Positions 6,039 through 31,307 of a stretch of 64,000 bases of DNA are shown one piece after another. How positions within the stretch are numbered: position 1 is the first letter of the stretch; the number at the start of each line of letters is the position of its first letter. Under the pieces are notes generated by a model. The model ran no database searches. It worked only from the letters and a program-made list of their open reading frames with translations, and had not been told where the DNA came from. Location of the stretch: contig JAEWUV010000002.1 of the NCBI GenBank assembly GCA_023396915.1, forward strand, positions 86,087 through 150,086, given 5' to 3'. Both the position numbers and the translations under genes were made by a program. This DNA comes from Candidatus Parcubacteria bacterium. GTDB taxonomy: Bacteria > Patescibacteriota > Microgenomatia > UBA12405.

Positions 6039-7567
6039 AGATTATTATTTTTGAAAATTCTAATGGTTGGGTTGTCAAAAACCGACCAGGTTTCTTCGGC
6101 ATTTTCGGAATTTAAAAAAAGGCTATTTGATTTGGAAAAGGTTTTAATTTGAGAAAAACCTAGCTGGCCGGAAAAAAGTTTTTGATAATAATCTTGCGAC
6201 ATAGGAAATGATGGATTATTTTGATTTTTAAAAACTCGACGAGAAGGAACAAAAATATATTCGCTTTGATTGATAACTTTGGATAGCTCATCCCCTTTTT
6301 GATTTTCATCTAGGGTATAAAAATCAAAATTGGTAATATTTAGTTTGGAATTGAATAGAGGTATGTCAACAACATTGCCGCCCTCTGACAAAACATTACT
6401 ACTTATCGGAATGTTTTGATTAACCCAGTTTGTGGTCTGAATTCGGATATCGGAATTAAAATAAGTGCTAATAAAAAAATAAATGCCCGGCAGAATGCTG
6501 AAAAATATTAAAAAAACTCGGATAAATTTATTTTTGATTTCCCTAAAGAAAAATAAACTTAACAGCGGAGCAATAAAAAAAATTGGAGACATAAAACGGG
6601 TCCATTTGGAAAAAAGTTGACCCTGATAAATAAAGAAAACAAGTGAGGAAAATAAAGTAATTAATAGGTAAATGTTTTTTTTGTTTTTAAAGAAATTTTT
6701 GACAATAAAACCAAAACCAATAAAACTAAAAATAAAGATAAAAATACCATTAGTGTAGGGAAATATATTTTTAAATTGGAACAAATAAGGTAAGGTGCCA
6801 ATAAATTGACGAGTATAAAAAACAGGGATGGACCCATTAGCAACACCGATTTCATATTTCATTGAGGAAATAAATTCCCGATAATCAATCAAATTAAAGG
6901 GAGACAATATTACAGAGAAAATGAGAGCGACTAAAATTAAAAAATAAAATTTAGGGATTAAATCAGAAATTTTTTTAGGGTTTTCTAAAAAAAGAAATAA
7001 AAAAACAAAACAAATAGGAGCTAAAAAAATAAGAGCTGAAATTTTGGTGGCAATACCGATACCGGAAGTAATAGCGGCAAAAAATAAATATTTATATTGA
7101 GGGTTATCAAAAATAAGAAAAGAGAAATAAATATTTACAGCAAAAATAAAAATAAGAATTGATTCGGTGGTGCCAAAATGGGCCAACTGAATTAACCCAG
7201 GAGTAAAAATAATTAAGATAGATAAAATAGTGGCTAATTTGTTTGAATTAAATATTTTTTTGCCAATTAAATAAAAAATAAAAACCGAAATAGAAGAGAA
7301 AAAGGCTGACCAGAACCTAAGGGTTAGATTAATATTAAAGTTGTTATGTTGAGGGGTGGTAAAAAATGTAAGGTAAAGAGGGAATTGTCCGTAAGCAAAA
7401 AATTTGGGATTAAAATTTGTTGGATTTAAACGTAAAACAGCTGAGACCATATTGTTTTCATCCGGATGAAAAGCAAAACCGTTGGACCAATTAAGTTTCC
7501 AAAATCGAGTAAATAGAGTTAAAAAAAACAAGAAAATAAACAAGAAAAAGCGTTTTTTAGATGACAT
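6035..7567 (-). CDS. GT-C glycosyltransferase (GT39/PMT_2/ArnT-like), paralog of the upstream gene
   Basis: The AFHPDENNMVSAV motif follows the first transmembrane helix. Architecture parallels 4290..6038. Its stop/start overlaps the neighbour by ATGA. Confidence 0.6.
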   Translation of the reverse strand: MSSKKRFFLFIFLFFLTLFTRFWKLNWSNGFAFHPDENNMVSAVLRLNPTNFNPKFFAYGQFPLYLTFFTTPQHNNFNINLTLRFWSAFFSSISVFIFYLIGKKIFNSNKLATILSILIIFTPGLIQLAHFGTTESILIFIFAVNIYFSFLIFDNPQYKYLFFAAITSGIGIATKISALIFLAPICFVFLFLFLENPKKISDLIPKFYFLILVALIFSVILSPFNLIDYREFISSMKYEIGVANGSIPVFYTRQFIGTLPYLFQFKNIFPYTNGIFIFIFSFIGFGFIVKNFFKNKKNIYLLITLFSSLVFFIYQGQLFSKWTRFMSPIFFIAPLLSLFFFREIKNKFIRVFLIFFSILPGIYFFISTYFNSDIRIQTTNWVNQNIPISSNVLSEGGNVVDIPLFNSKLNITNFDFYTLDENQKGDELSKVINQSEYIFVPSRRVFKNQNNPSFPMSQDYYQKLFSGQLGFSQIKTFSKSNSLFLNSENAEETWSVFDNPTIRIFKNNNL

Positions 7568-19406: not shown

Positions 19407-21113
19407 TTATTTTTCTAAAAACTTAATAATTTCTTCGGGAAAGAAAGGACGACCATCATTTTTAGTAAAAATTTTTGTTGGATTGAATTCGAATTGAGAT
19501 TTTAATAAAGTTGTCATCTGGCTAGTGCCGTTATTTTCAATAACAATAATTTCTTTGAACGGTTTTATTATATTTTGAATATCAGGGTTAATTGGCCAAA
19601 GAGTTCTTAGTTGTAAAAAAGCAAAATCTGTTTTGTTTTTTAGATTTTTTAAAGCCTCGAGGATAGCACCTTTTGGAGAACCCCAGGAAACAATTAATTT
19701 TTTAGCTTTTTTGTCACCAAAAAAATTAGCTTTTGGAGCAAGTCTTATGGCCATTTCATTTTTTAGCTGACGTTTGGCAAACATTTTATCGGCGGCCTTG
19801 GCATCTTCAATAGCAAAACCGTATTCGTTATGCTCGTAACTATTGGCTAAAAATTGACCATTAGAAACACCCGGTAAAGTCCTAGGTGAAATTCCGTTTG
19901 AAGTAAATTTGTAGCGTTTAAAATCTTTTCCTGGTTTAGTGTCAATATCACCATTTTCTATTTTTACCTTTATATCAGACAAATCTTCCAGACTTCCACC
20001 TGATTCACTTAGGAGTTTATCGCTAACAATAATTACCGGGGTTTGAAGTTTGGCGGCTAAGTTTAAGGATTGGAAACCTGCTTCAAAAGATTCCTGTAAA
20101 TCACCCGGGGCAATAACCACTTTAGGAAATTCACCATGACCGGAATAAATAGCATGCATTAAATCACCCTGAGCCGTCCAGGTGGGTAAACCGGTAGCCG
20201 GTCCTGGTCGAGAAACCAGATAAAATACTAAGCCAATTTCACTAACACCACAAAAGCTAACAGCTTCGTTCATCAGAGCAAAGCCACCACCAGAAGTACC
20301 AACGGCAGTACGAGCCCCAGCAAAAGCGGCACCAGCACCTAAATTAGCAACTCCAATTTCATCTTCGGCATGAATTACTTTTAAGTTTGGTAAATTTTCT
20401 TGTTTAGCGGCTAAAAAGTGAAGAGCGCCAGTGGCTGGAGTCATAGGATAAGCGGCGTAAAAATTACCACCACCGGCCAAAAACCCCCAACCAAAGCTTT
20501 CATTACCATCGTATAATTCAACTTTTCTTTTTAGATTAGTTTTACATTTTAAATTAAGTTTGAATTTGGAAAAATTACTTTCGGCATAATTGTAACCGGC
20601 TTGAATAGCTTTAGCATTGAAATCACTTAATTTACAATAAAAACCACAAACAATTGTTTTAGATAAATTAATATCAAGCCCAAACAGGTAAATGGCGACC
20701 CCTAAACTGATGCTGTTAGTCACCAAGGGGCTACCGACTTCGCCGGATAAAGTTTTAAGAGGTAAATTTAAAAAAGTTCCCCTTTTAACCTCTTTTTTAT
20801 TAATTTCCTCGTCAGAAAAAATTAAAGTTTTTTGAGTAAATTCTTCAAAATGCTGTTGCCAATGACCGGGGTTTATAGAAAAAAACATGTCAATTTCTTT
20901 GTGAGCGGCAAAAACTTTGTCTAAAGAAAAAGTGATTTGATAAGTATTGTGACCACCACGAACTAGTGACGGATATTCACTATAATCGACTAAATTAAAA
21001 CCATGAGCAATTAAAATTTTGGAAAAAAGTTGGCCAATGGATTTGATCCCGGTTCCCGCAGGACCAGCAATTTTGATAGTGTAAGAATTTTGGGCCATAG
21101 GTTTATTGTACAC
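19407..21113 (-). CDS. 2-oxoacid:ferredoxin oxidoreductase, fused gamma-alpha subunit
   Basis: An N-terminal gamma-like domain (IKIAGPAGTGIKSIG) precedes an alpha domain (FLAGGGNFYAAYPMTPATG). 568 aa. Confidence 0.75.
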   Translation of the reverse strand: MYNKPMAQNSYTIKIAGPAGTGIKSIGQLFSKILIAHGFNLVDYSEYPSLVRGGHNTYQITFSLDKVFAAHKEIDMFFSINPGHWQQHFEEFTQKTLIFSDEEINKKEVKRGTFLNLPLKTLSGEVGSPLVTNSISLGVAIYLFGLDINLSKTIVCGFYCKLSDFNAKAIQAGYNYAESNFSKFKLNLKCKTNLKRKVELYDGNESFGWGFLAGGGNFYAAYPMTPATGALHFLAAKQENLPNLKVIHAEDEIGVANLGAGAAFAGARTAVGTSGGGFALMNEAVSFCGVSEIGLVFYLVSRPGPATGLPTWTAQGDLMHAIYSGHGEFPKVVIAPGDLQESFEAGFQSLNLAAKLQTPVIIVSDKLLSESGGSLEDLSDIKVKIENGDIDTKPGKDFKRYKFTSNGISPRTLPGVSNGQFLANSYEHNEYGFAIEDAKAADKMFAKRQLKNEMAIRLAPKANFFGDKKAKKLIVSWGSPKGAILEALKNLKNKTDFAFLQLRTLWPINPDIQNIIKPFKEIIVIENNGTSQMTTLLKSQFEFNPTKIFTKNDGRPFFPEEIIKFLEK

Positions 21114-21146
21114 GTTTTAGTCAACTAGAGAAATCTTAAAATTGGC

Positions 21147-21887
21147 TTAATCGGATTTTTTGCGGTTATATTTGCGGCCAGTAAGGGCTTTGGATAAGGC
21201 TTCTCGATAAGCAATTTTGGGCAAGCTTTCTTTATTCTTTTCTAGATAATCTAAGACTTCTTTTTTGTGAAAAGTGGTTAAAGAACGAAGTAACCAAGAA
21301 ACGGCTTTGGTGATTAAAATATCGGTCTCCATTTTTAGATTTTCGATGTTGGCAAAAGCTAATTTTGCCAGACGTGAATCATCCGATTTGCTAACTGATT
21401 TAGTTAATAAAACTAGACTAGCCCGGCGTTTATTAATGTTACTGCTTTTATTAAATTCTTTTAAAATTTTCTGCCATGATAGCCAGTTGTTTAAAACGTT
21501 TTCGGCAGTAAAAATTGACTGGCAGAGAACATCGTCTTCCGCCCAACCATGGGTATGATTTAACCATAAATCTAAATTTTTGGGGTCAAAATTTTTTAAA
21601 GTTTCAGGTGAAAGGGATAAAATCATTGGTCCAACAACAATCTCAGTGTAACTCTCCCCTTTTTGATAAAGGGAATTAAGGAGTTGAATAATTTCATCGG
21701 AATTTAAATTATTTTCTTTGACAATTTTTTTGGCTAAATCCTTGATCTGTTTAGTACTAAATCCATGATAAGGCTTGTTGGTACCAATATATCTTTGACT
21801 AAAAGCAATATTTTCTGGTGTGGAGGCAGATTTTATTTTGGAAATTTCTTTTAAAAGATATAAGTGATGTGGATTTTTGACTGACAT
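21147..21887 (-). CDS. DNA alkylation repair protein (AlkD/AlkC-like HEAT-repeat glycosylase family)
   Basis: All-helical 246-aa protein with a W..DD...Q and RRASLVLL pattern resembling the DNA_alkylation family. Confidence 0.5.
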   Translation of the reverse strand: MSVKNPHHLYLLKEISKIKSASTPENIAFSQRYIGTNKPYHGFSTKQIKDLAKKIVKENNLNSDEIIQLLNSLYQKGESYTEIVVGPMILSLSPETLKNFDPKNLDLWLNHTHGWAEDDVLCQSIFTAENVLNNWLSWQKILKEFNKSSNINKRRASLVLLTKSVSKSDDSRLAKLAFANIENLKMETDILITKAVSWLLRSLTTFHKKEVLDYLEKNKESLPKIAYREALSKALTGRKYNRKKSD

Positions 21888-21899
21888 AATCTTATTATA

Positions 21900-23000
21900 T
21901 TATCTTCGGGAGATTTTGTGTTTGAAAGTTACGGGGGTTAAAAAGGATAATATCTCTCCAACCCAAAAATAATTAGAAAGTAAACTAATATCACAACCAT
22001 ATTTTTTGAGCATTAAATAATCGATAGAAAAACTTAACAAAGAAACTGTAAAAGGAATTAGAGTTGTAAATTTAGTTGAATATCTGACAAAGAAAAAGTT
22101 AATAACCAAAGCGATGATAAATAATATTGGCAACCAACAACCGTTGTGAATGTCAGTTGTACCTAAAATTTGGCCGGAAGGAGTGGAAATATTTTCGTTA
22201 ATATCAGTTTTGGGAAGCTGAAAATTAATAGTTGGGACTGGTAGATTAAAACGCTTAGTTTCTGAATAAGAAAAATTTTTTTTGGCTTCGTTGGTAGTAT
22301 TTGTAGTAAAAGTGTTTGTATTGGTGTTATTACTGGAATTATTAGTGTTATTGGTAGTAGATGAACTGTTTTTGTTGATGTTAGTAACAGTAATAGTTTT
22401 TCTGGAAATATTTCCAGCCGGGTCAGTGGCGATAAATTCAAAAGAACCATTTTGGGTAAAAGTGTAGGAGGAAAAATTTAAAACACCTTCATTAGTTGAA
22501 GCAACGACGGTGATATTTTGATCTGTCGGATTTAGGTTATATGGTTTTATGGTAATAACTGGAGGAGTAGTGTCAACAACGGTAATAACATTGGTTAACG
22601 TCAGCGATTTGGCAATAGCCCCACCGGTGCAATTTTCATTAGAAAAAGCTTTAAGAGTAATGTTGTAAGTCCCCTCGTCTGACGGCGAAAGAAAATCAAA
22701 AATATTTTGGTGAAAATCACTAGAAAAAAAATTAGCAGTATCAACACAAACAGAATTTTGACCGGAGAAAGTGTATTGGGTAGAAGACCAATTGGCAGTG
22801 TCGTTGGAGTCTGAATTATCAAACCAAGTAGAAACATTAATAGTGGCCTTAATACTTTGTTGGGGTTCGACAGTAACAGAAAAATTATTATCAAACATAG
22901 CGCCGGTTACCCAAGTGCTGGCAAAAGCGGGGGTTTTTAGGGGTAGAAAAAATAGGGCAATAAAAACACAAAACCAGTTTCTAAAAATACGAAAGCTCAT
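21900..23000 (-). CDS. Secreted/membrane protein with an Asn/Thr-rich low-complexity region and C-terminal TM segments
   Basis: Signal peptide, an NTNNSSNNTNTNTFTTNTTN tract, and hydrophobic C-terminal helices. Confidence 0.35.
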   Translation of the reverse strand: MSFRIFRNWFCVFIALFFLPLKTPAFASTWVTGAMFDNNFSVTVEPQQSIKATINVSTWFDNSDSNDTANWSSTQYTFSGQNSVCVDTANFFSSDFHQNIFDFLSPSDEGTYNITLKAFSNENCTGGAIAKSLTLTNVITVVDTTPPVITIKPYNLNPTDQNITVVASTNEGVLNFSSYTFTQNGSFEFIATDPAGNISRKTITVTNINKNSSSTTNNTNNSSNNTNTNTFTTNTTNEAKKNFSYSETKRFNLPVPTINFQLPKTDINENISTPSGQILGTTDIHNGCWLPILFIIALVINFFFVRYSTKFTTLIPFTVSLLSFSIDYLMLKKYGCDISLLSNYFWVGEILSFLTPVTFKHKISRR

Positions 23001-23256
23001 TTGGGCAGGGCAAAAACAAAAACTTTTTTAAGTATAGAGACTTTAAAAAAAGATTACAATTGGCTGAAAAATACTTAATATTTACTAATGGTATGAGGGT
23101 GACTAGCATCAGGTTTCGCTTGTTTCGCTTCTTGAGAGACTTTTGTTTGTTCTGGAGTCACAGGAGGACGACTTGGATAATTTTTATCTCCATGATTAAA
23201 AGGAGGGGTTAAATGGATAGGCTTGGTGCTTTCTATTGACATATTTTATTTAAAAA

Positions 23257-23583
23257 CTAATCAAAAGTATAAATTATTTTTTCAAAATTTATGATTTTGT
23301 TATTTTTGTCCACTTTAATCCCCTCTTTTTTATAGAGTTTGTCGCGCCATTTGTTGTGTTTTGGATCAAACCAAATTTTGCCGTTGCTGTAAACAATTCG
23401 ATGAAAGGGAATTTTATCAACATCAGGAGATTTGGATAAAATAGTGGTGATCATCCGCGACATCATAGGATGTCCGCCAGCCGCCGCACATAAAAATCCA
23501 TAAGTGGTTACCTTGCCCTCTGGAATTTGCAGTGCTAATTCCCAGACTTTTTGGGTGAAAGAAGAAGGAGATTTTTGAGCCAT
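23257..23583 (-). CDS. Alkyltransferase-like protein (ATL): MGMT DNA-binding domain with the active-site Cys replaced (PFHRIV)
   Basis: TQKVWELALQIPEGKVTTYGFL and ...KIPFHRIV align to MGMT C-terminal motifs (PCHRV). The nucleophilic Cys is Phe, and the 108-aa length is typical of ATLs. Confidence 0.6.
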   Translation of the reverse strand: MAQKSPSSFTQKVWELALQIPEGKVTTYGFLCAAAGGHPMMSRMITTILSKSPDVDKIPFHRIVYSNGKIWFDPKHNKWRDKLYKKEGIKVDKNNKIINFEKIIYTFD

Positions 23584-23584
23584 T

Positions 23585-24145
23585 TTAAATTTTAAAATAT
23601 TTATCTTTCTCCCAATTTATAACATTATTTTTAATATATTGTTTAATGGTGGAATACTGTTTTTGGTCTTTGACAATAATATCGTGATAACGAGGTTGCC
23701 AAGCAAAAAAGACGGTTTTAGGATTGATTTGACGGGTAACAGCTGACTTGAACTGTTTTATAACTAAAGGAATAGTTTGAGTAGAACGAATAGCTATTCG
23801 GTGATAAAAATAATTATTGTATCTTTTAGTTAGAGACGCATCATGATGCGTCTCTACAGGGTTAAATGAAGTTGATTCAAGATTTAAAAGTAGGTGGATA
23901 TGATTAGGCATAATTACGAATTCACGAATGAAAATATTTTTGAAATGTTTAAGGATGTCAGTAAGACATTGATTAGCGATTAGTCCCATTTTGGATAATT
24001 CCATTTGTTTATTAATTATTTTGCCAAAGAAATTATTGTGTTGATAAGTACAAATGGTGATGAAGTAAATGCCTGAAGTTGAATAATTGTGATTTTTTAG
24101 ACGAGGAGAAGATAGGCGATATTTGGAGGCAAATTTATTTTCCAC
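23585..24145 (-). CDS. RAYT (REP-associated tyrosine transposase) / IS200-like Y1 HUH transposase family protein, single-domain
   Basis: HUH motif (VIMPNHIHLLL). C-terminal AWQPRYHDIIVKD...IKQYIKNN matches the catalytic Tyr region of the IS200/RAYT family. 186 aa. Confidence 0.65.
   Translation of the reverse strand: MENKFASKYRLSSPRLKNHNYSTSGIYFITICTYQHNNFFGKIINKQMELSKMGLIANQCLTDILKHFKNIFIREFVIMPNHIHLLLNLESTSFNPVETHHDASLTKRYNNYFYHRIAIRSTQTIPLVIKQFKSAVTRQINPKTVFFAWQPRYHDIIVKDQKQYSTIKQYIKNNVINWEKDKYFKI
23831..23856. repeat. Perfect 26-bp palindrome tagagacgcatcatgatgcgtctcta inside the transposase CDS
   Basis: The reverse complement is identical to the forward sequence. It is in-frame and encodes ETHHDASL within 23585..24145. 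Confidence 0.9.
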
Positions 24146-25307
24146 TTTTCTTTTCTATAAAATACTTCTTACCTTTTAATTTATCCGGCAATAGGGATTC
24201 TTTGGAATACATTTCGTAACCTTTGCCATAACCAACTTCTTTCATCAATTTGGTGGGGGCGTTGCGAAGACTCATTGGTATTGGCAGATTGCCGTGAAGT
24301 TGGACATCGGCAAGAGCGGACATATAAGCATCATAAGCAGAACGATTTTTGGGAGATTTAGCCAGATAGACTACTCCATGAGCCAAAGTTTCTCGACATT
24401 CTGGCAGGCCTAAAAGTTCAACACTTTTAAAAACTTCATTGGCCAACATTAAGGCAGAGGAATTAGCAATACCAATATCTTCGGAGGCAAAAACCACCAT
24501 ACGACGGGCAATAAATTTGGGATCTTCGCCACTTTCAATCATTCGAGCTAGATAATAAAGAGCGGCATCGACATTGCTGGCTCGCATACTTTTTATAAAT
24601 GCCGAAATTGTGTTGTAGTGTTCCTCGCCTTTTTTGTCGAAACGCAAAAATTTATTTTGAAGAGTATTGATTAGATTTTCTTTGGTTAAAGAGTTGTAAA
24701 GAGTAAAAGAATTATCAATCATGGTCAGAGCCTGACGAGCATCGCCATTGGCCATTTTGATAAGCCAGTCTTTGGCGTCTTTGGTAATTTTTGTTTTTAA
24801 GACTTTGGCAGCCCGAGAAATAACTTCATCAATTTCATCGTCGGTTAATTCATTTAAAATGAATACCCGGCAACGAGAAAGAAGTGGAGAAATGACCTCA
24901 AAACTGGGGTTTTCGGTGGTGGCACCAATGAGAGTTAGGACGCCGGATTCGACGTAAGGAAGTAGAAAATCCTGTTGGGCTTTGTTGAAACGATGAATTT
25001 CGTCTAAAAATAATATTTTTTTGTAAAGACCAGGATTGGTAGTATCTCCAACAATTTTTTTGATATCAGCTTTGCCGGCAGAAACTGCTGAAAGTTCGTG
25101 GATTTCAGCGCCAGTTTCTTTGGCAATAATTTTGGCTAAAGTAGTTTTGCCGACTCCGGGAGGACCCCAAAAAATCATGGAAAAAATTTGGTGATTTTCG
25201 ATGGCTAGACGAAGTGGTTTACCGGGACCAACTAAATGTGTTTGGCCAATAAATTCGTCTAGATTTTTGGGGCGGAGTAATGAGGCTAAGGGTTGAGTTA
25301 GTGTCAT
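24135..25307 (-). CDS. rarA: Replication-associated recombination protein A (AAA+ ATPase RarA/MgsA)
   Basis: Walker [10 protein letters not shown]. Conserved RarA blocks [15 protein letters not shown] and a C-terminal MgsA domain. Confidence 0.85.
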
Positions 25308-25380
25308 AAATTAACTTTGGGTAATATTCGGGTCTTGGACTCAGTATAAACCTGATGGAAAGAATGGTCAATCGGAAAGA

Positions 25381-26070
25381 TTAGAGATGTTTGATAATTA
25401 GCAAAGGGACGTAAACATCTTTTTGGCAAGATAGGACAAATTCAACAGCATCAACGACGGATTCTACCGGTAAAGCAATAGAGTGGTCGATAGGGATTTC
25501 TTTTTTGAAATTGGTATCCATAAGACCGGGACACAAGCTGATTACTTTGATGCCATAGGGTGAAAGGTCAAGTTGAAGAGATTCAGTAAAACCCTGACAA
25601 GCATATTTAGAAGCATGATAAACAGTATTAAGAGCTTTGGGATAATGACCGGCGGTAGAGTTTACATTTAAAATAGTCCCCTCTTTTTGTTTTTTCATAT
25701 GAGGAATGACGTATTTACACAGATTCATTTGACCAACCACATTAACGTCAATTACTTGTTTGAATTTAACCGGATCATTATCGTCAATTTCACCCTCGAT
25801 ATAGATACCGGCATTATTGATTAAATAATCAATTTTTTGGTATTTATCGATAATAAAATCAACGGCTTTTTTGACTGACTCGTGATTGGCAACATCACAG
25901 AAGTGATAATCACAATTAAATTCTTTGGCGGTGGCAGCGGCTGCAGTTTCGTCAAAATCGAGGATAATAATTTGATAATCTTTGGAAAGGCGAGCAACAA
26001 TGGCACGACCTAAACCATTGGCCCCGCCAGTAATACATATAATTTTTTTATCCATGACTGATTTTAACAA
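25381..26070 (-). CDS. Short-chain dehydrogenase/reductase (classical SDR)
   Basis: TGGANGLGRAI cofactor motif, NNAG, and the YHASKYA catalytic YxxxK motif. Confidence 0.7.
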   Translation of the reverse strand: MLKSVMDKKIICITGGANGLGRAIVARLSKDYQIIILDFDETAAAATAKEFNCDYHFCDVANHESVKKAVDFIIDKYQKIDYLINNAGIYIEGEIDDNDPVKFKQVIDVNVVGQMNLCKYVIPHMKKQKEGTILNVNSTAGHYPKALNTVYHASKYACQGFTESLQLDLSPYGIKVISLCPGLMDTNFKKEIPIDHSIALPVESVVDAVEFVLSCQKDVYVPLLIIKHL

Positions 26071-29187: not shown

Positions 29188-29490
29188 TTATTTCTTTTTC
29201 TTGTCTGAATTATCGAGTTTGAGGATTTTGGAAGCAAAGTAAACAACCAAGGCAATAATTATAAAATCAATTAAGCTGCTAATAAAACTACCAATAAGGA
29301 TTTTGGTCGAACCAATTTGAAAATAAATCTGGCTTAAATCCCCTACTTTCCCTAACAAAAGACCAATTAGAGGATTAATAATGTCGGCAACTAAAGCAGC
29401 AACTAACTTGGTTACGGCTGTACCCATGACAACACCAATAGCTAAACCAATGACTCCATGAGATTGAATAAATTTAATAAAACCTTTCAT
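29188..29490 (-). CDS. mscL: Large-conductance mechanosensitive channel
   Basis: 100 aa. MKGFIKFIQSHGVIGLAIGVVMGTAV...LVADIINPLIG matches the MscL TM1 consensus. Confidence 0.8.
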   Translation of the reverse strand: MKGFIKFIQSHGVIGLAIGVVMGTAVTKLVAALVADIINPLIGLLLGKVGDLSQIYFQIGSTKILIGSFISSLIDFIIIALVVYFASKILKLDNSDKKKK

Positions 29491-29516
29491 AACTAGATTA
29501 TAATAGACAAAGTTAT

Positions 29517-30260
29517 ATGATTAAAGAGTTTGTATCAAAATTGGATAGAAGTGTGGCTAAATATGGTTTGGTGGAAGCAATTAAAAAATTACTTTTAAGT
29601 TATGGGGCAAAAGTGGTGGTAGAAAGCAATGATGAAATTGATGAGATATTAACTAATGGGTCCGGGGTGTTAGTGGCAAGCCATCCGGCAGAATTTGATG
29701 TACCGGTAATATTAGCGGCGATAAAAAACAGGAAAGATGTTTTTTTGGTTATTAATTCTCATTTTATGAAACTGATACCTAATTTAGACCAGTATTTAAT
29801 TCCGGTATATGTTTACAACAAATCAAGGTCACATTTTTTTGGTAGATTAACAACAAAAATATTTAATACTTTTCATAGGATAGAAAAAATGTCGATTGAG
29901 GAAGGGCGTAAGAAGAATATTAAAAGTATAAAATTGGCTGCTGATAAAATTAATAGTGGAGGATTGGTGATAATTTTTCCTGATGGAGGAGTAGGGGGAA
30001 AATGGTTTAATGGTGTTGGACATTTAATTCATGGAGTGAAGAATATAAAAAATAGCTTTGTTTTAAGGGTTAATATAAAGGGAACTTCTAATTGGAATTG
30101 GCTAAGATTAATACCAATAATGAATAAATTTTTGCCTGAGTTTAGGGTTAGTTTTGCTAAACCATTAAAGATGAATTTGATTAAAAAAGAAGAACCGGGA
30201 AAAACAACAAAATATTTGGAAAAGAAGTATCGGGAATGGTCAAAATCAATTAATTACTAG
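29517..30260 (+). CDS. Putative lysophospholipid acyltransferase-family (PlsC-like) protein
   Basis: An HxxxxD motif (SHPAEFD) and an FPEG-like motif (IFPDGGVGG). Assignment is tentative. Confidence 0.4.
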   Translation: MIKEFVSKLDRSVAKYGLVEAIKKLLLSYGAKVVVESNDEIDEILTNGSGVLVASHPAEFDVPVILAAIKNRKDVFLVINSHFMKLIPNLDQYLIPVYVYNKSRSHFFGRLTTKIFNTFHRIEKMSIEEGRKKNIKSIKLAADKINSGGLVIIFPDGGVGGKWFNGVGHLIHGVKNIKNSFVLRVNIKGTSNWNWLRLIPIMNKFLPEFRVSFAKPLKMNLIKKEEPGKTTKYLEKKYREWSKSINY

Positions 30261-30266
30261 ATTTTG

Positions 30267-31307
30267 TTAATAGATAAACATAGCATCACCAAAACTAAAG
30301 AAACGGTATTTTTTATCGACAGCCTCTTGATAGGCTTTAAAAATTCTGTCTTTGCCGGCAAAGGCAGAAACTAACATCAAAAGACTAGACTCGGGTAGAT
30401 GGAAATTGGTAATTAGAGCATCGACAAATTTAAATTGGTAGGGAGGATAAATAAAAATTTGAGTAGAATTTTGACCAGCAATAATTTGGTGACTTTTATC
30501 AATAGCTGATTCAAGGGTGCGGACGGAGGTGGTACCAACTGCAATAATTCGTTTGCCATCTTTTTTGGCTTGGTTTAGACGTTTAGCAACATTTTGTTTA
30601 ATTTCATAAAATTCAGAATGTAATCTTTTAGATTCAATATTTTCAGGTCTAAGATTTTGAAAAGTACCTAAGCCCACATGAAGAGTTATATATTCAATTT
30701 GGACGCCTTTTTGTTTTAGTTTGGCTAAAAGACTTTTGGTAAAGTGAAGTCCGGCAGTCGGAGCAGCGGCTGAACCGGTTTTTTGGGGATTAGCGTAAAC
30801 AGTTTGATATTCAGATCTAATTTCTTTTTCGGTTTGAACGGAATGAATATAAGGAGGAATGGGAGTATGGCCAATTTTGTCTAAAATCTGGAAAAATTGA
30901 TTATTTTTAAAATTAAATTTAATCTCGATTTGGCCAGTTTTTGGGTCACTTTTTAAAACTTTTCCCGTTAATTGGTGAGGAAAAAATAATTTTTGTCCAA
31001 CTTTGGGGCGAGGCTTAGAAATGGCTAGCCAAGTATTGCCGGTAAGTTGGTGAAGTAAAAGAATTTCGATTTCTCCCCCACTTTCTTTTTTACCAAAAAG
31101 ACGGGCAGGAAAAACTTTGCTTTGATTTAAAACTAGAACATCATTTGGCCCAAGTACGTCTAAAATATCGTAGAAATGCAAATGATTAATTTCTCCGGTT
31201 TTTTTGTTTAAAGTTAAAAGACGACAATGATCGCGTCTAGAGCTCGGCTTGTTGGCAATGAGAGATTGTGGTAGTAAATAGAAATAATCTTTTATATTTA
31301 AAGACAC
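30267..31307 (-). CDS. queA: S-adenosylmethionine:tRNA ribosyltransferase-isomerase
   Basis: The N-terminus (DYFYLLPQSLIANKPSSRRDHCRLL) and internal blocks (GHTPIPPYI, TAGLHFT) match QueA. Confidence 0.85.
   Translation of the reverse strand: MSLNIKDYFYLLPQSLIANKPSSRRDHCRLLTLNKKTGEINHLHFYDILDVLGPNDVLVLNQSKVFPARLFGKKESGGEIEILLLHQLTGNTWLAISKPRPKVGQKLFFPHQLTGKVLKSDPKTGQIEIKFNFKNNQFFQILDKIGHTPIPPYIHSVQTEKEIRSEYQTVYANPQKTGSAAAPTAGLHFTKSLLAKLKQKGVQIEYITLHVGLGTFQNLRPENIESKRLHSEFYEIKQNVAKRLNQAKKDGKRIIAVGTTSVRTLESAIDKSHQIIAGQNSTQIFIYPPYQFKFVDALITNFHLPESSLLMLVSAFAGKDRIFKAYQEAVDKKYRFFSFGDAMFIY

Follow-up and report, generated by a model that had tools for sequence, protein, structure and literature searches.

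TnpA_REP proteins (RAYTs) are regarded as domesticated as a class (PMC5581495, PMC8266576), and for subclasses other than 2.4 cleavage of GTAG-tagged repetitive extragenic palindromic (REP) sequences is established (PMC8266576). Subclass 2.4, which is RAYT group 4 of Bertels et al. 2017 (Quentin et al. 2018, PMC6006769), comprises proteins of ~194 amino acids (aa) that have the motifs NH[IFV]H, WQ and YIxNNP and in which beta3 and alphaC are separated by a variable insertion (PMC6006769). Its 'double-foot' REPs have a 5′ GT[AG]G and a 3′ C[TC]AC (Quentin, Siguier, Chandler and Fichant 2018, PMC6006769) and are mostly inserted inside the tnpA_REP genes themselves, a trait described as striking and peculiar to the subclass (PMC6006769). 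GTAG-tagged REPs, intragenic REPs and REPtrons in species that lack large REP families had been described before (PMC3733652). Here we report the analysis of a gene of this type, together with its neighbors, in a 64-kb stretch of a Candidatus Parcubacteria bacterium genome (contig JAEWUV010000002.1, positions 86,087 to 150,086; hereafter the window, to which all window-level searches refer). The gene stands between rarA and a gene for an alkyltransferase-like (ATL) protein, with a gene for an AlkD-like glycosylase further downstream. At a probability of about 0.75, we interpret the region as a Shapirobacteria operon-like cluster that brings together three independent DNA-damage functions and two variable slots, and in which the HUH protein is a member of subclass 2.4/group 4.

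The names of homologues place the source of the window in Candidatus Shapirobacteria, within the Patescibacteria/CPR. Loci for comparison were taken from the contigs of six ATL homologues and from an ATL scan of metagenome contigs, and the window proteins were then mapped onto them. Twenty-six distinct Shapirobacteria-type loci span both the end of rarA and the start of the ATL gene, and in every one of these rarA is located upstream of the ATL gene on the same strand. In L084/85, L094, L108, L112 and L115, rarA directly precedes the ATL gene, with either an ATGA stop/start overlap, as in L094, or a gap of 1-50 nt. The AlkD gene follows the ATL gene directly in L107 and L112, and after at least one large surface-protein gene in L084, L086, L088, L090, L092 and the window. 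The gene order of the nearest relative, L088, is that of the window from CTP synthase through 2-oxoacid:ferredoxin oxidoreductase, with 95% identity for the CTP synthase, 93% for the SDR protein and 90% for both RarA and the oxidoreductase. As rarA is upstream of the ATL gene in all 26 loci, with AlkD following in several, rarA, ATL and AlkD constitute a conserved backbone with two variable slots, and this backbone is specific to the clade: at more distant ATL/MGMT loci (≤54% identity) no rarA was seen nearby. An initial annotation of this DNA had described a DNA alkylation-damage neighborhood in which rarA, an HUH gene and an ATL gene are linked, an observation that would have fallen had the ATL candidate aligned better to an unrelated fold or the linkage been unique to this genome. 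Neither was found, the rarA-HUH-ATL order recurring in five other distinct loci, and so the observation stands. All five ORFs (open reading frames) are on the minus strand exactly where that annotation had placed them, and Pfam searches agree with its family assignments for the RarA, HUH, MGMT-fold and AlkD-like proteins; DNA_alkylation matched 21147..21887 (1.2e-27) and DNA_binding_1 matched 23257..23583 (1.7e-16).

The 108-aa protein is, by every sequence criterion applied, an ATL. PF01035 (DNA_binding_1; 60.2 bits, residues 9-88) is its sole domain, and in the motif KIPFHRIV the nucleophilic Cys of PCHR is replaced by Phe60, as had been recognized from PFHRIV in the initial annotation. The best solved relatives by sequence are ATLs, namely vpAtl (2kif, 9e-10) and Atl1 (3gva, 4e-6), with all true MGMTs ranked lower. 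The Tyr and the Arg finger of these two proteins have their counterparts in Tyr28 (TTYG) and Arg43 (MSRMI), and Phe60 aligns with the Trp that replaces their active-site Cys. JGI has already given some homologues the name 'alkylated DNA nucleotide flippase Atl1'. In the clade, Phe is the rule, with PFHR in 116 of the top 120 homologues (PWHR in the other 4) and in all 34 tblastn matches of at least 66% identity in metagenome loci. At 50-55% identity there are 6 PFHR, 2 PWHR and 1 PCHR sequences, and below 50% identity 27 are of the Ala type (PAHR) and 21 are true PCHR proteins. The closest described ATLs, S. pombe Atl1 (3gva), V. parahaemolyticus vpAtl (2kif), E. coli eAtl/YbaZ and T. thermophilus TTHA1564, share with the window protein the single MGMT C-terminal domain of ~108 aa, the Arg finger and Tyr, and the absence of the nucleophilic Cys. 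They differ from it in having Trp (most) or Ala where the window protein has Phe (PMC10779285); a text search of that review found no mention of a Phe type. As judged from these alignments, Phe is therefore a lineage-typical third ATL variant beside Trp and Ala. A further difference from the described ATLs is the translational coupling to rarA, and a literature search found no paper on a rarA-ATL linkage.

The two remaining backbone proteins are also assigned to families. The 390-aa protein has the complete three-domain architecture of RarA, AAA+ followed by AAA_assoc_2 and MgsA_C (Pfam MgsA_C 9.8e-50, AAA_assoc_2 1.9e-21, with RuvB_N and AAA), and is 76-90% identical to the product of the gene upstream of the ATL gene in the relatives. 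The domain set is that of E. coli RarA/MgsA but the window protein is shorter and scores below the NCBIfam equivalog cut-offs (PRK13341, 355 vs 651; PRK14700, 140 vs 570). The 246-aa protein matches DNA_alkylation (PF08713) with 97.5 bits (1.2e-27) over profile positions 4-212 of 213, and so belongs full-length to the Pfam family of Bacillus cereus AlkD (3bvs, 5cl4), although its pairwise match to that protein, while end-to-end, is weak (E 0.0075). In this weak alignment, to 3bvs, W115-x3-D119, R155 and W198 correspond to AlkD W109/D113, R148 and W187, W115 pairing with W109 only if a one-residue gap is shifted. None of the four residues varies among six clade members, and with the Pfam match this bears out the earlier AlkD-type assignment. 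An in-frame insert of 23 aa, VDLHPPFLKGGQEGDFRRLKEIQ, is present in the AlkD-like gene of the nearest relative (L088 9530-10333) but missing from those of the window and the other clade members. The PPFLKGG peptide within it resembles a translated palindromic repeat of the CCCCCTTT..AAAGGGGG type and, if repeat-derived, the insert would be a further case of a REP-like insertion within a gene, in this case a repair gene.

Taken together, these assignments suggest how the backbone might work. RarA would act as an AAA+ ATPase at stalled or gapped replication forks. The ATL would bind DNA through its helix-turn-helix, with Arg43 and Tyr28 flipping out O6-alkylguanine; having Phe60 in place of the nucleophilic Cys, it would not accept the alkyl group and would instead flag the lesion to another pathway, nucleotide excision repair being the one used by the ATLs studied so far. 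The AlkD-like protein is predicted to excise cationic N3- and N7-alkylpurines without base flipping, by means of a cleft formed by Trp115, Asp119 and Trp198. The three would thus act independently on alkyl damage that blocks replication or miscodes. The tight coupling of the backbone genes suggests co-expression, presumably from a common transcript, and the HUH gene would stand outside this repair logic, as an ORF-only insert coupled translationally on both sides within a variable slot. A Phe-type ATL coupled to RarA and linked to AlkD makes a clean operon in an uncultured lineage of the candidate phyla radiation (CPR), and the ATL-RarA coupling hints that lesion sensing may be tied to fork processing where the repair repertoire is minimal.

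The HUH protein matches Pfam Y1_Tnp (30.4 bits, cut-off 23) and contains an HUH motif, N81-H82-I83-H84, a single catalytic tyrosine, Tyr170, and the W149-Q150 and Y170-IKNNV motifs; the consensus among homologues is YIxNNxINW, with the last motif position P in many. In an AlphaFold (AF2) model, with a mean predicted local distance difference test score (pLDDT) of 77.6, Foldseek found matches to the TnpA of ISDra2 and IS608 and to the TnpA_REP 4er8 (E about 1e-6), of which 4er8 gives the best superposition (TMq 0.56, root mean square deviation 3.9 Å). A profile built from 42 homologues likewise has 4er8 as its best match in the PDB, aligning VIMPNHIH with VVLPEHMH and WQPRYHD..YIKNN with WQPRFWEH..YIYINP, and because it aligns the HUH motifs in this way, His82, His84 and Tyr170 are in place. 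With E. coli TnpA_REP/RayT (YafM, 4er8), which recognizes GTAG-tagged hairpins in single-stranded DNA (PMC8266576), the protein shares the Y1 HUH fold and the WQPRFW..YI..NP core, but the E. coli gene belongs to subclass 2.2 and, unlike the window gene, is flanked by bulged REPs/BIMEs (bacterial interspersed mosaic elements). With subclass 2.4 it shares NHIH, WQ and YIxNN, the length of ~190 aa and the insertion between beta3 (HUH) and alphaC, and the family as a whole shares divergent paralogues and a patchy distribution. The differences from subclass 2.4 are the host (Patescibacteria/CPR), the position as an ORF-only gene in a repair operon with no flanking REPs, a hairpin with CTAA rather than CTAC as its 3′ foot, and a Y motif that ends in V rather than P. 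By its motifs, its length and the REP in its gene, the protein is a Patescibacteria/CPR member of TnpA_REP subclass 2.4 / RAYT group 4. It probably functions as a nuclease that acts on GTAG hairpins in single-stranded DNA, and it would recognize the hairpin within its own gene.

That hairpin is a perfect 26-nt palindrome, TAGAGACGCATCATGATGCGTCTCTA, at 23831-23856, found once in the 64 kb and not at all in 100 shuffles. It encodes codons 97-105, V97-ETHHDASL105, and is located between the HUH and Tyr motifs. The encoded segment falls in a disordered loop (residues 97-119, pLDDT <50) that connects the HUH strand to the next helix. Folding is predicted for the DNA (-11.1 kcal/mol, z = -5.4) and for the RNA (-16.4 kcal/mol, z = -4.6). 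We considered the palindrome as a new feature and dropped that claim, as in-gene REPs are already described for subclass 2.4 (Quentin et al. 2018, PMC6006769); the window gene extends these known RAYTs to Patescibacteria.

Of 105 full-length close homologues, 96 have the peptide signature of the palindrome at the corresponding position, but the palindrome is read in different frames, as VET..ASL in 69, as CRD..VST, shifted by one base, in 24 and as both in 3. It is therefore the DNA, and not the peptide, that is conserved. Of 88 family genes, drawn from several phyla, 52 have a perfect stem of at least 8 bp in the 120 nt that follow the HUH motif; the background rate is 0.52 per kb. In Patescibacteria and Bacteroidota these hairpins are of the form GTAGAGACG...CGTCTCTAC, with CTAC as the 3′ foot in most relatives, and in Clostridia they are GGGCG-type palindromes, often with a second, inverted copy ~150 nt upstream. 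A literature search with the strings GTAGAGACG and CGTCTCTAC returned only primers and cloning sites, and no perfect hairpin of at least 7 bp is present inside the E. coli rayT gene, used as a control. In CPR genomes the REP is found almost solely at the in-gene position. Since the regular expression used for the search fixed 17 of the 27-28 hairpin positions, identity statistics are inflated, and this holds for the constancy of the outer nine base pairs among the 16 distinct 28-nt versions and for the 100% identity of hairpins between genes whose 150-nt flanks are mostly 63-89% identical (21-25% for one upstream flank of the L177 gene, which has an extra insert). Only the presence/absence counts and the three variable pairs, which are next in the stem, are informative. 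Covariation is evident in these three pairs: 21 changes are double, 1 gives G-U and none gives a mismatch.

The same GTAG-type hairpin also flanks the HUH genes of the relatives L173, L003, L086, L002 and L009. L173 has a full REPtron-like layout around P0005 (4960-5620): a truncated hairpin, GTAGAGACGCCATATATGGC, overlaps the start codon, the gene contains an internal perfect hairpin at +306, and 9 nt beyond the stop codon there is another perfect hairpin, whose upper stem differs. In the Clostridia ORFs (L008-L080), two GC-rich palindromes, GGGCGNCC..GGNCGCCC, are ~167 nt apart and have reverse-complementary loops, being thus inverted relative to each other, and bracket the segment with the HUH motif; some loci have a third copy just after the stop codon. 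Examples are at 7092 and 7259 in L057, 6685 and 6858 in L055, and 7096, 7259 and 7497 in L020.

What these data say about the function of the in-gene REP depends on how its persistence is read. Quentin et al. 2018 regarded such copies as neutral passengers in a tolerant surface loop, and this is possible, if doubtful, here. The encoded segment is disordered and peripheral, the loop contains between 0 and 3 copies, some of them decayed (for example, the first hairpin in L177), and REPs are also found inside other genes and, in GIY-YIG genes, as C-terminal tails (PMC3733652). Both open frames are used, as expected were insertions filtered only for frame openness. However, the hairpin is present in 96 of the 105 close homologues and occupies the same position across phyla with lineage-specific sequences, it is a perfect palindrome with compensatory changes where neutral inserts should decay, and it exceeds the rest of the gene in DNA conservation, with flanks that diverge to about 50%.

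An RNA-level role, with a stem in the polycistronic mRNA that limits translation or governs how stable the HUH message and the downstream ATL message are, is improbable. It would fit the predicted RNA stem, the sense-strand G-U pair tolerated in L001 and the known effects of REP hairpins on mRNA stability and translation (PMC3733652), but nearly all copies are perfect Watson-Crick palindromes and hence strand-symmetric, and identical hairpins occur outside transcribed ORF contexts. There is also no T-run or terminator signature: a terminator scan found nothing at the in-gene hairpin, and a search of Rfam with 20900-25600 gave no match.

Tentatively, the in-gene REP may be a maintained cis element rather than a tolerated insertion. 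Kept as the protein's own recognition hairpin, it could act as an autoregulatory site, preserve a protected master copy or provide the breakpoint at which gene halves are exchanged. Maintenance would explain the perfect palindrome with its compensation, the fixed position across phyla, and DNA conservation that is the highest in a fast-evolving gene. Identities of the N-half (to the HUH motif) and the C-half (from the QFKS helix) correlate with r = 0.49 (P0001-P0120), with discordant pairs such as 85% for N and 54% for C, and 45% for N and 84% for C. Mosaic genes with exchange around the hairpin would give this pattern, but it is suggestive only, as fragments and paralogy confound the comparison. 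The covariation, frame independence and conservation above that of the flanks provide quantitative evidence on the functionality of in-gene REPs. The covariation and conservation lead us to lean toward maintenance, although they do not prove a function.

The HUH gene itself is an optional passenger in the rarA-ATL slot and not part of the backbone. In addition to the window, L088, L086, L092, L096 and L090 have it there, but it is absent from 20 of the 26 loci, including loci with the ATGA overlap of the rarA stop and the ATL start. The insert consists only of the ORF, having taken over the ATGA coupling to rarA and ending 1 nt before the ATL start. In L088 the HUH protein is only 57% identical, in a backbone that is 90-95% identical, and its middle part is that of another sub-type. 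In L090 a deletion right after the hairpin causes a frameshift, leaving a pseudogene. The HUH homologues on long contigs that were looked up (70-73% identity) are located outside the rarA-ATL slot, P0002 and P0004 between MscL and QueA and P0005 between RNase J and ProRS; the only closer homologue, P0001 (79%), is on a 1-kb metagenome fragment. This absence from most loci, the unrelated contexts of homologues, the divergence relative to the backbone and the L090 pseudogene are the basis for excluding the HUH gene from the backbone. In Shapirobacteria the MscL-QueA site, which is a few kb away from the rarA slot, is also recurrently occupied by an HUH gene (L174-L179, L086 1-19); in the window (29188-31307) and in L088 it holds an acyltransferase gene (window 29517-30260).

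The initial annotation had proposed a domesticated host nuclease, a view that holds to the extent that RAYTs are deemed domesticated as a class but not in tying the protein to this neighborhood. It had noted that REPs do not flank the gene, as is the case in the window, but had overlooked the palindrome in the gene, and its inference of a host function from the lack of REPs fails, as there is a REP inside the HUH ORF. That the HUH protein is a domesticated nuclease fixed in an alkylation-repair neighborhood, for example as the incision partner of the ATL, is quite unlikely. The tight coupling to rarA and the ATL gene (an 11-nt overlap and a 1-nt gap), the same order in L088, L086, L092, L096 and L090, the intact catalytic residues and the domesticated standing of RAYTs in general (PMC5581495, PMC8266576) could be taken to favor such a role. 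Set against these are the absence of the gene from 20 of the 26 loci, in 5 of which rarA is joined directly to the ATL gene, its decay in L090, the unrelated contexts of its closest homologues and its 57% identity where the backbone is 90-95% identical. A scan of genome contigs with a profile made from the HUH alignment identified 80 loci, which showed no consistent linkage to repair genes; rarA was near only the Clostridia loci L053 and L061. As this HUH-side scan showed no linkage, linkage was examined from the ATL side instead. Among the loci of the HUH-side scan, which covered GTDB representatives, the five Shapirobacteria copies (L001-L004, L007) have no rarA, ATL or AlkD gene within 7 kb. 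A role for the HUH protein in alkylation repair thus has no support, and its presence would instead reflect a permissive, recombination-prone slot.

Least probable of all is a recent jump of the gene, as an active IS200/IS605-type insertion sequence, into the space between rarA and the ATL gene for, despite the Y1_Tnp fold and motifs and family members at several sites and more than one per genome, the insert is ORF-only with no subterminal left- or right-end hairpins outside the ORF and no non-coding ends, tblastn of the window returned no further copy, paralogues within a genome are divergent instead of near-identical (P0007 vs P0073), and the motifs are of the RAYT type (WQPR..., YIxNN) and not of the IS200 type (PMC6006769).

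Several observations count against the reading of the region as a repair cluster that has acquired a subclass 2.4 gene. The window gene fits subclass 2.4 save in three respects. REPs flanking the gene, and with them a REPtron, are absent from the window; the Y motif is YIKNNV and not YIxNNP; and the 48-bit match to the NCBIfam model REP_Tyr_transpos does not reach the cut-off of 80, a model that was probably built on proteobacterial RAYTs. With a single copy of the hairpin in the 64 kb, a REP family in the genome is not demonstrated. The HUH gene is right after rarA in six loci, and formally this leaves room for a local role. The equivalence of the AlkD catalytic residues comes from a low-confidence alignment (E 0.0075) together with conservation within the clade, the biochemical activities of all the proteins are predicted ones, and the 64-kb window contains no uvr gene and, by tblastn, no canonical ogt. 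Neither the repair cluster nor the HUH result overturns current knowledge.

Features of the rarA-ATL-AlkD region in the window (positions are those of the 64-kb stretch)
Feature	Position	Strand	Remarks
rarA/mgsA, AAA+ replication-associated recombination protein	24135..25307	-	390 aa; first backbone gene; Pfam
Y1 HUH nuclease gene, TnpA_REP (RAYT) class, subclass 2.4-like	23585..24145	-	186 aa; GTG start
In-gene 'double-foot' GTAG-type REP hairpin, GTAGAGACGCATCATGATGCGTCTCTAA	23830..23857	.	perfect 26-nt palindrome at 23831-23856
Alkyltransferase-like (ATL) protein, Phe type	23257..23583	-	108 aa; P59-F60-H61-R62; Tyr28, Arg43
Protein in second variable slot (ATL to AlkD)	21900..23000	-	366 aa; no Pfam match
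AlkD-like HEAT-repeat alkylpurine DNA glycosylase	21147..21887	-	246 aa; Pfam DNA_alkylation
Candidate promoter-like site upstream of rarA, TTGACC-17-TATACT	25343..25371	-	consensus scan, 10/12 matches

The window has a G+C content of ~34%, and its remaining content is housekeeping genes. The consensus scan found 25 promoter-like sites where 17.9 were expected, so the site upstream of rarA is a weak candidate.

In the 26 loci, the rarA-ATL slot contains the HUH gene in 6, is empty in 5 and contains a small GIY-YIG gene in 16, with unannotated small ORFs, a dCMP deaminase or a methyltransferase as its other contents. The GIY-YIG gene (82-101 aa, PF01541), absent from the window, is immediately upstream of the ATL gene and sometimes overlaps its start (for example, L081 6874-7158, L083 7716-7988, L090 1605-1910, L096 5720-5989, and 12 further loci). 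At four loci the same GTAG double-foot hairpin supplies its last codons, as in ...NVETLHATSLHS*. It is conceivable that this nuclease is a partner of the ATL. The dCMP/cytidine deaminase gene (PF00383), present in the slot or right after the AlkD gene (L090 1125-1598, L092 5276-5746, L084 15178-15639) and absent from the window region, provides a further nucleic-acid-base enzyme that travels with the cluster.

The protein encoded in the second slot has hydrophobic N- and C-terminal segments that resemble a signal peptide and a membrane anchor. It is 70% identical to the product of the L088 gene at the same place and elsewhere has only partial matches, to larger genes at the same position with Pfam fn3 or Big_13 domains. 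In L081, L083, L084, L086, L090 and L092 this slot is filled by dissimilar genes for surface proteins, often of enormous size (SpaA/SdrD_B, fn3, Big_13; up to 2257 aa), with a sortase in some, and only the C-terminal part of the window protein is common to them. The gap from the ATL gene to the 366-aa gene is 256 nt in the window and 79 nt in L088, and the window gap contains a 55-codon ORF, MSIESTKPIHLTPPFNHGDKNYPSRPPVTPEQTKVSQEAKQAKPDASHPHTISKY, at 23075-23242 on the minus strand.

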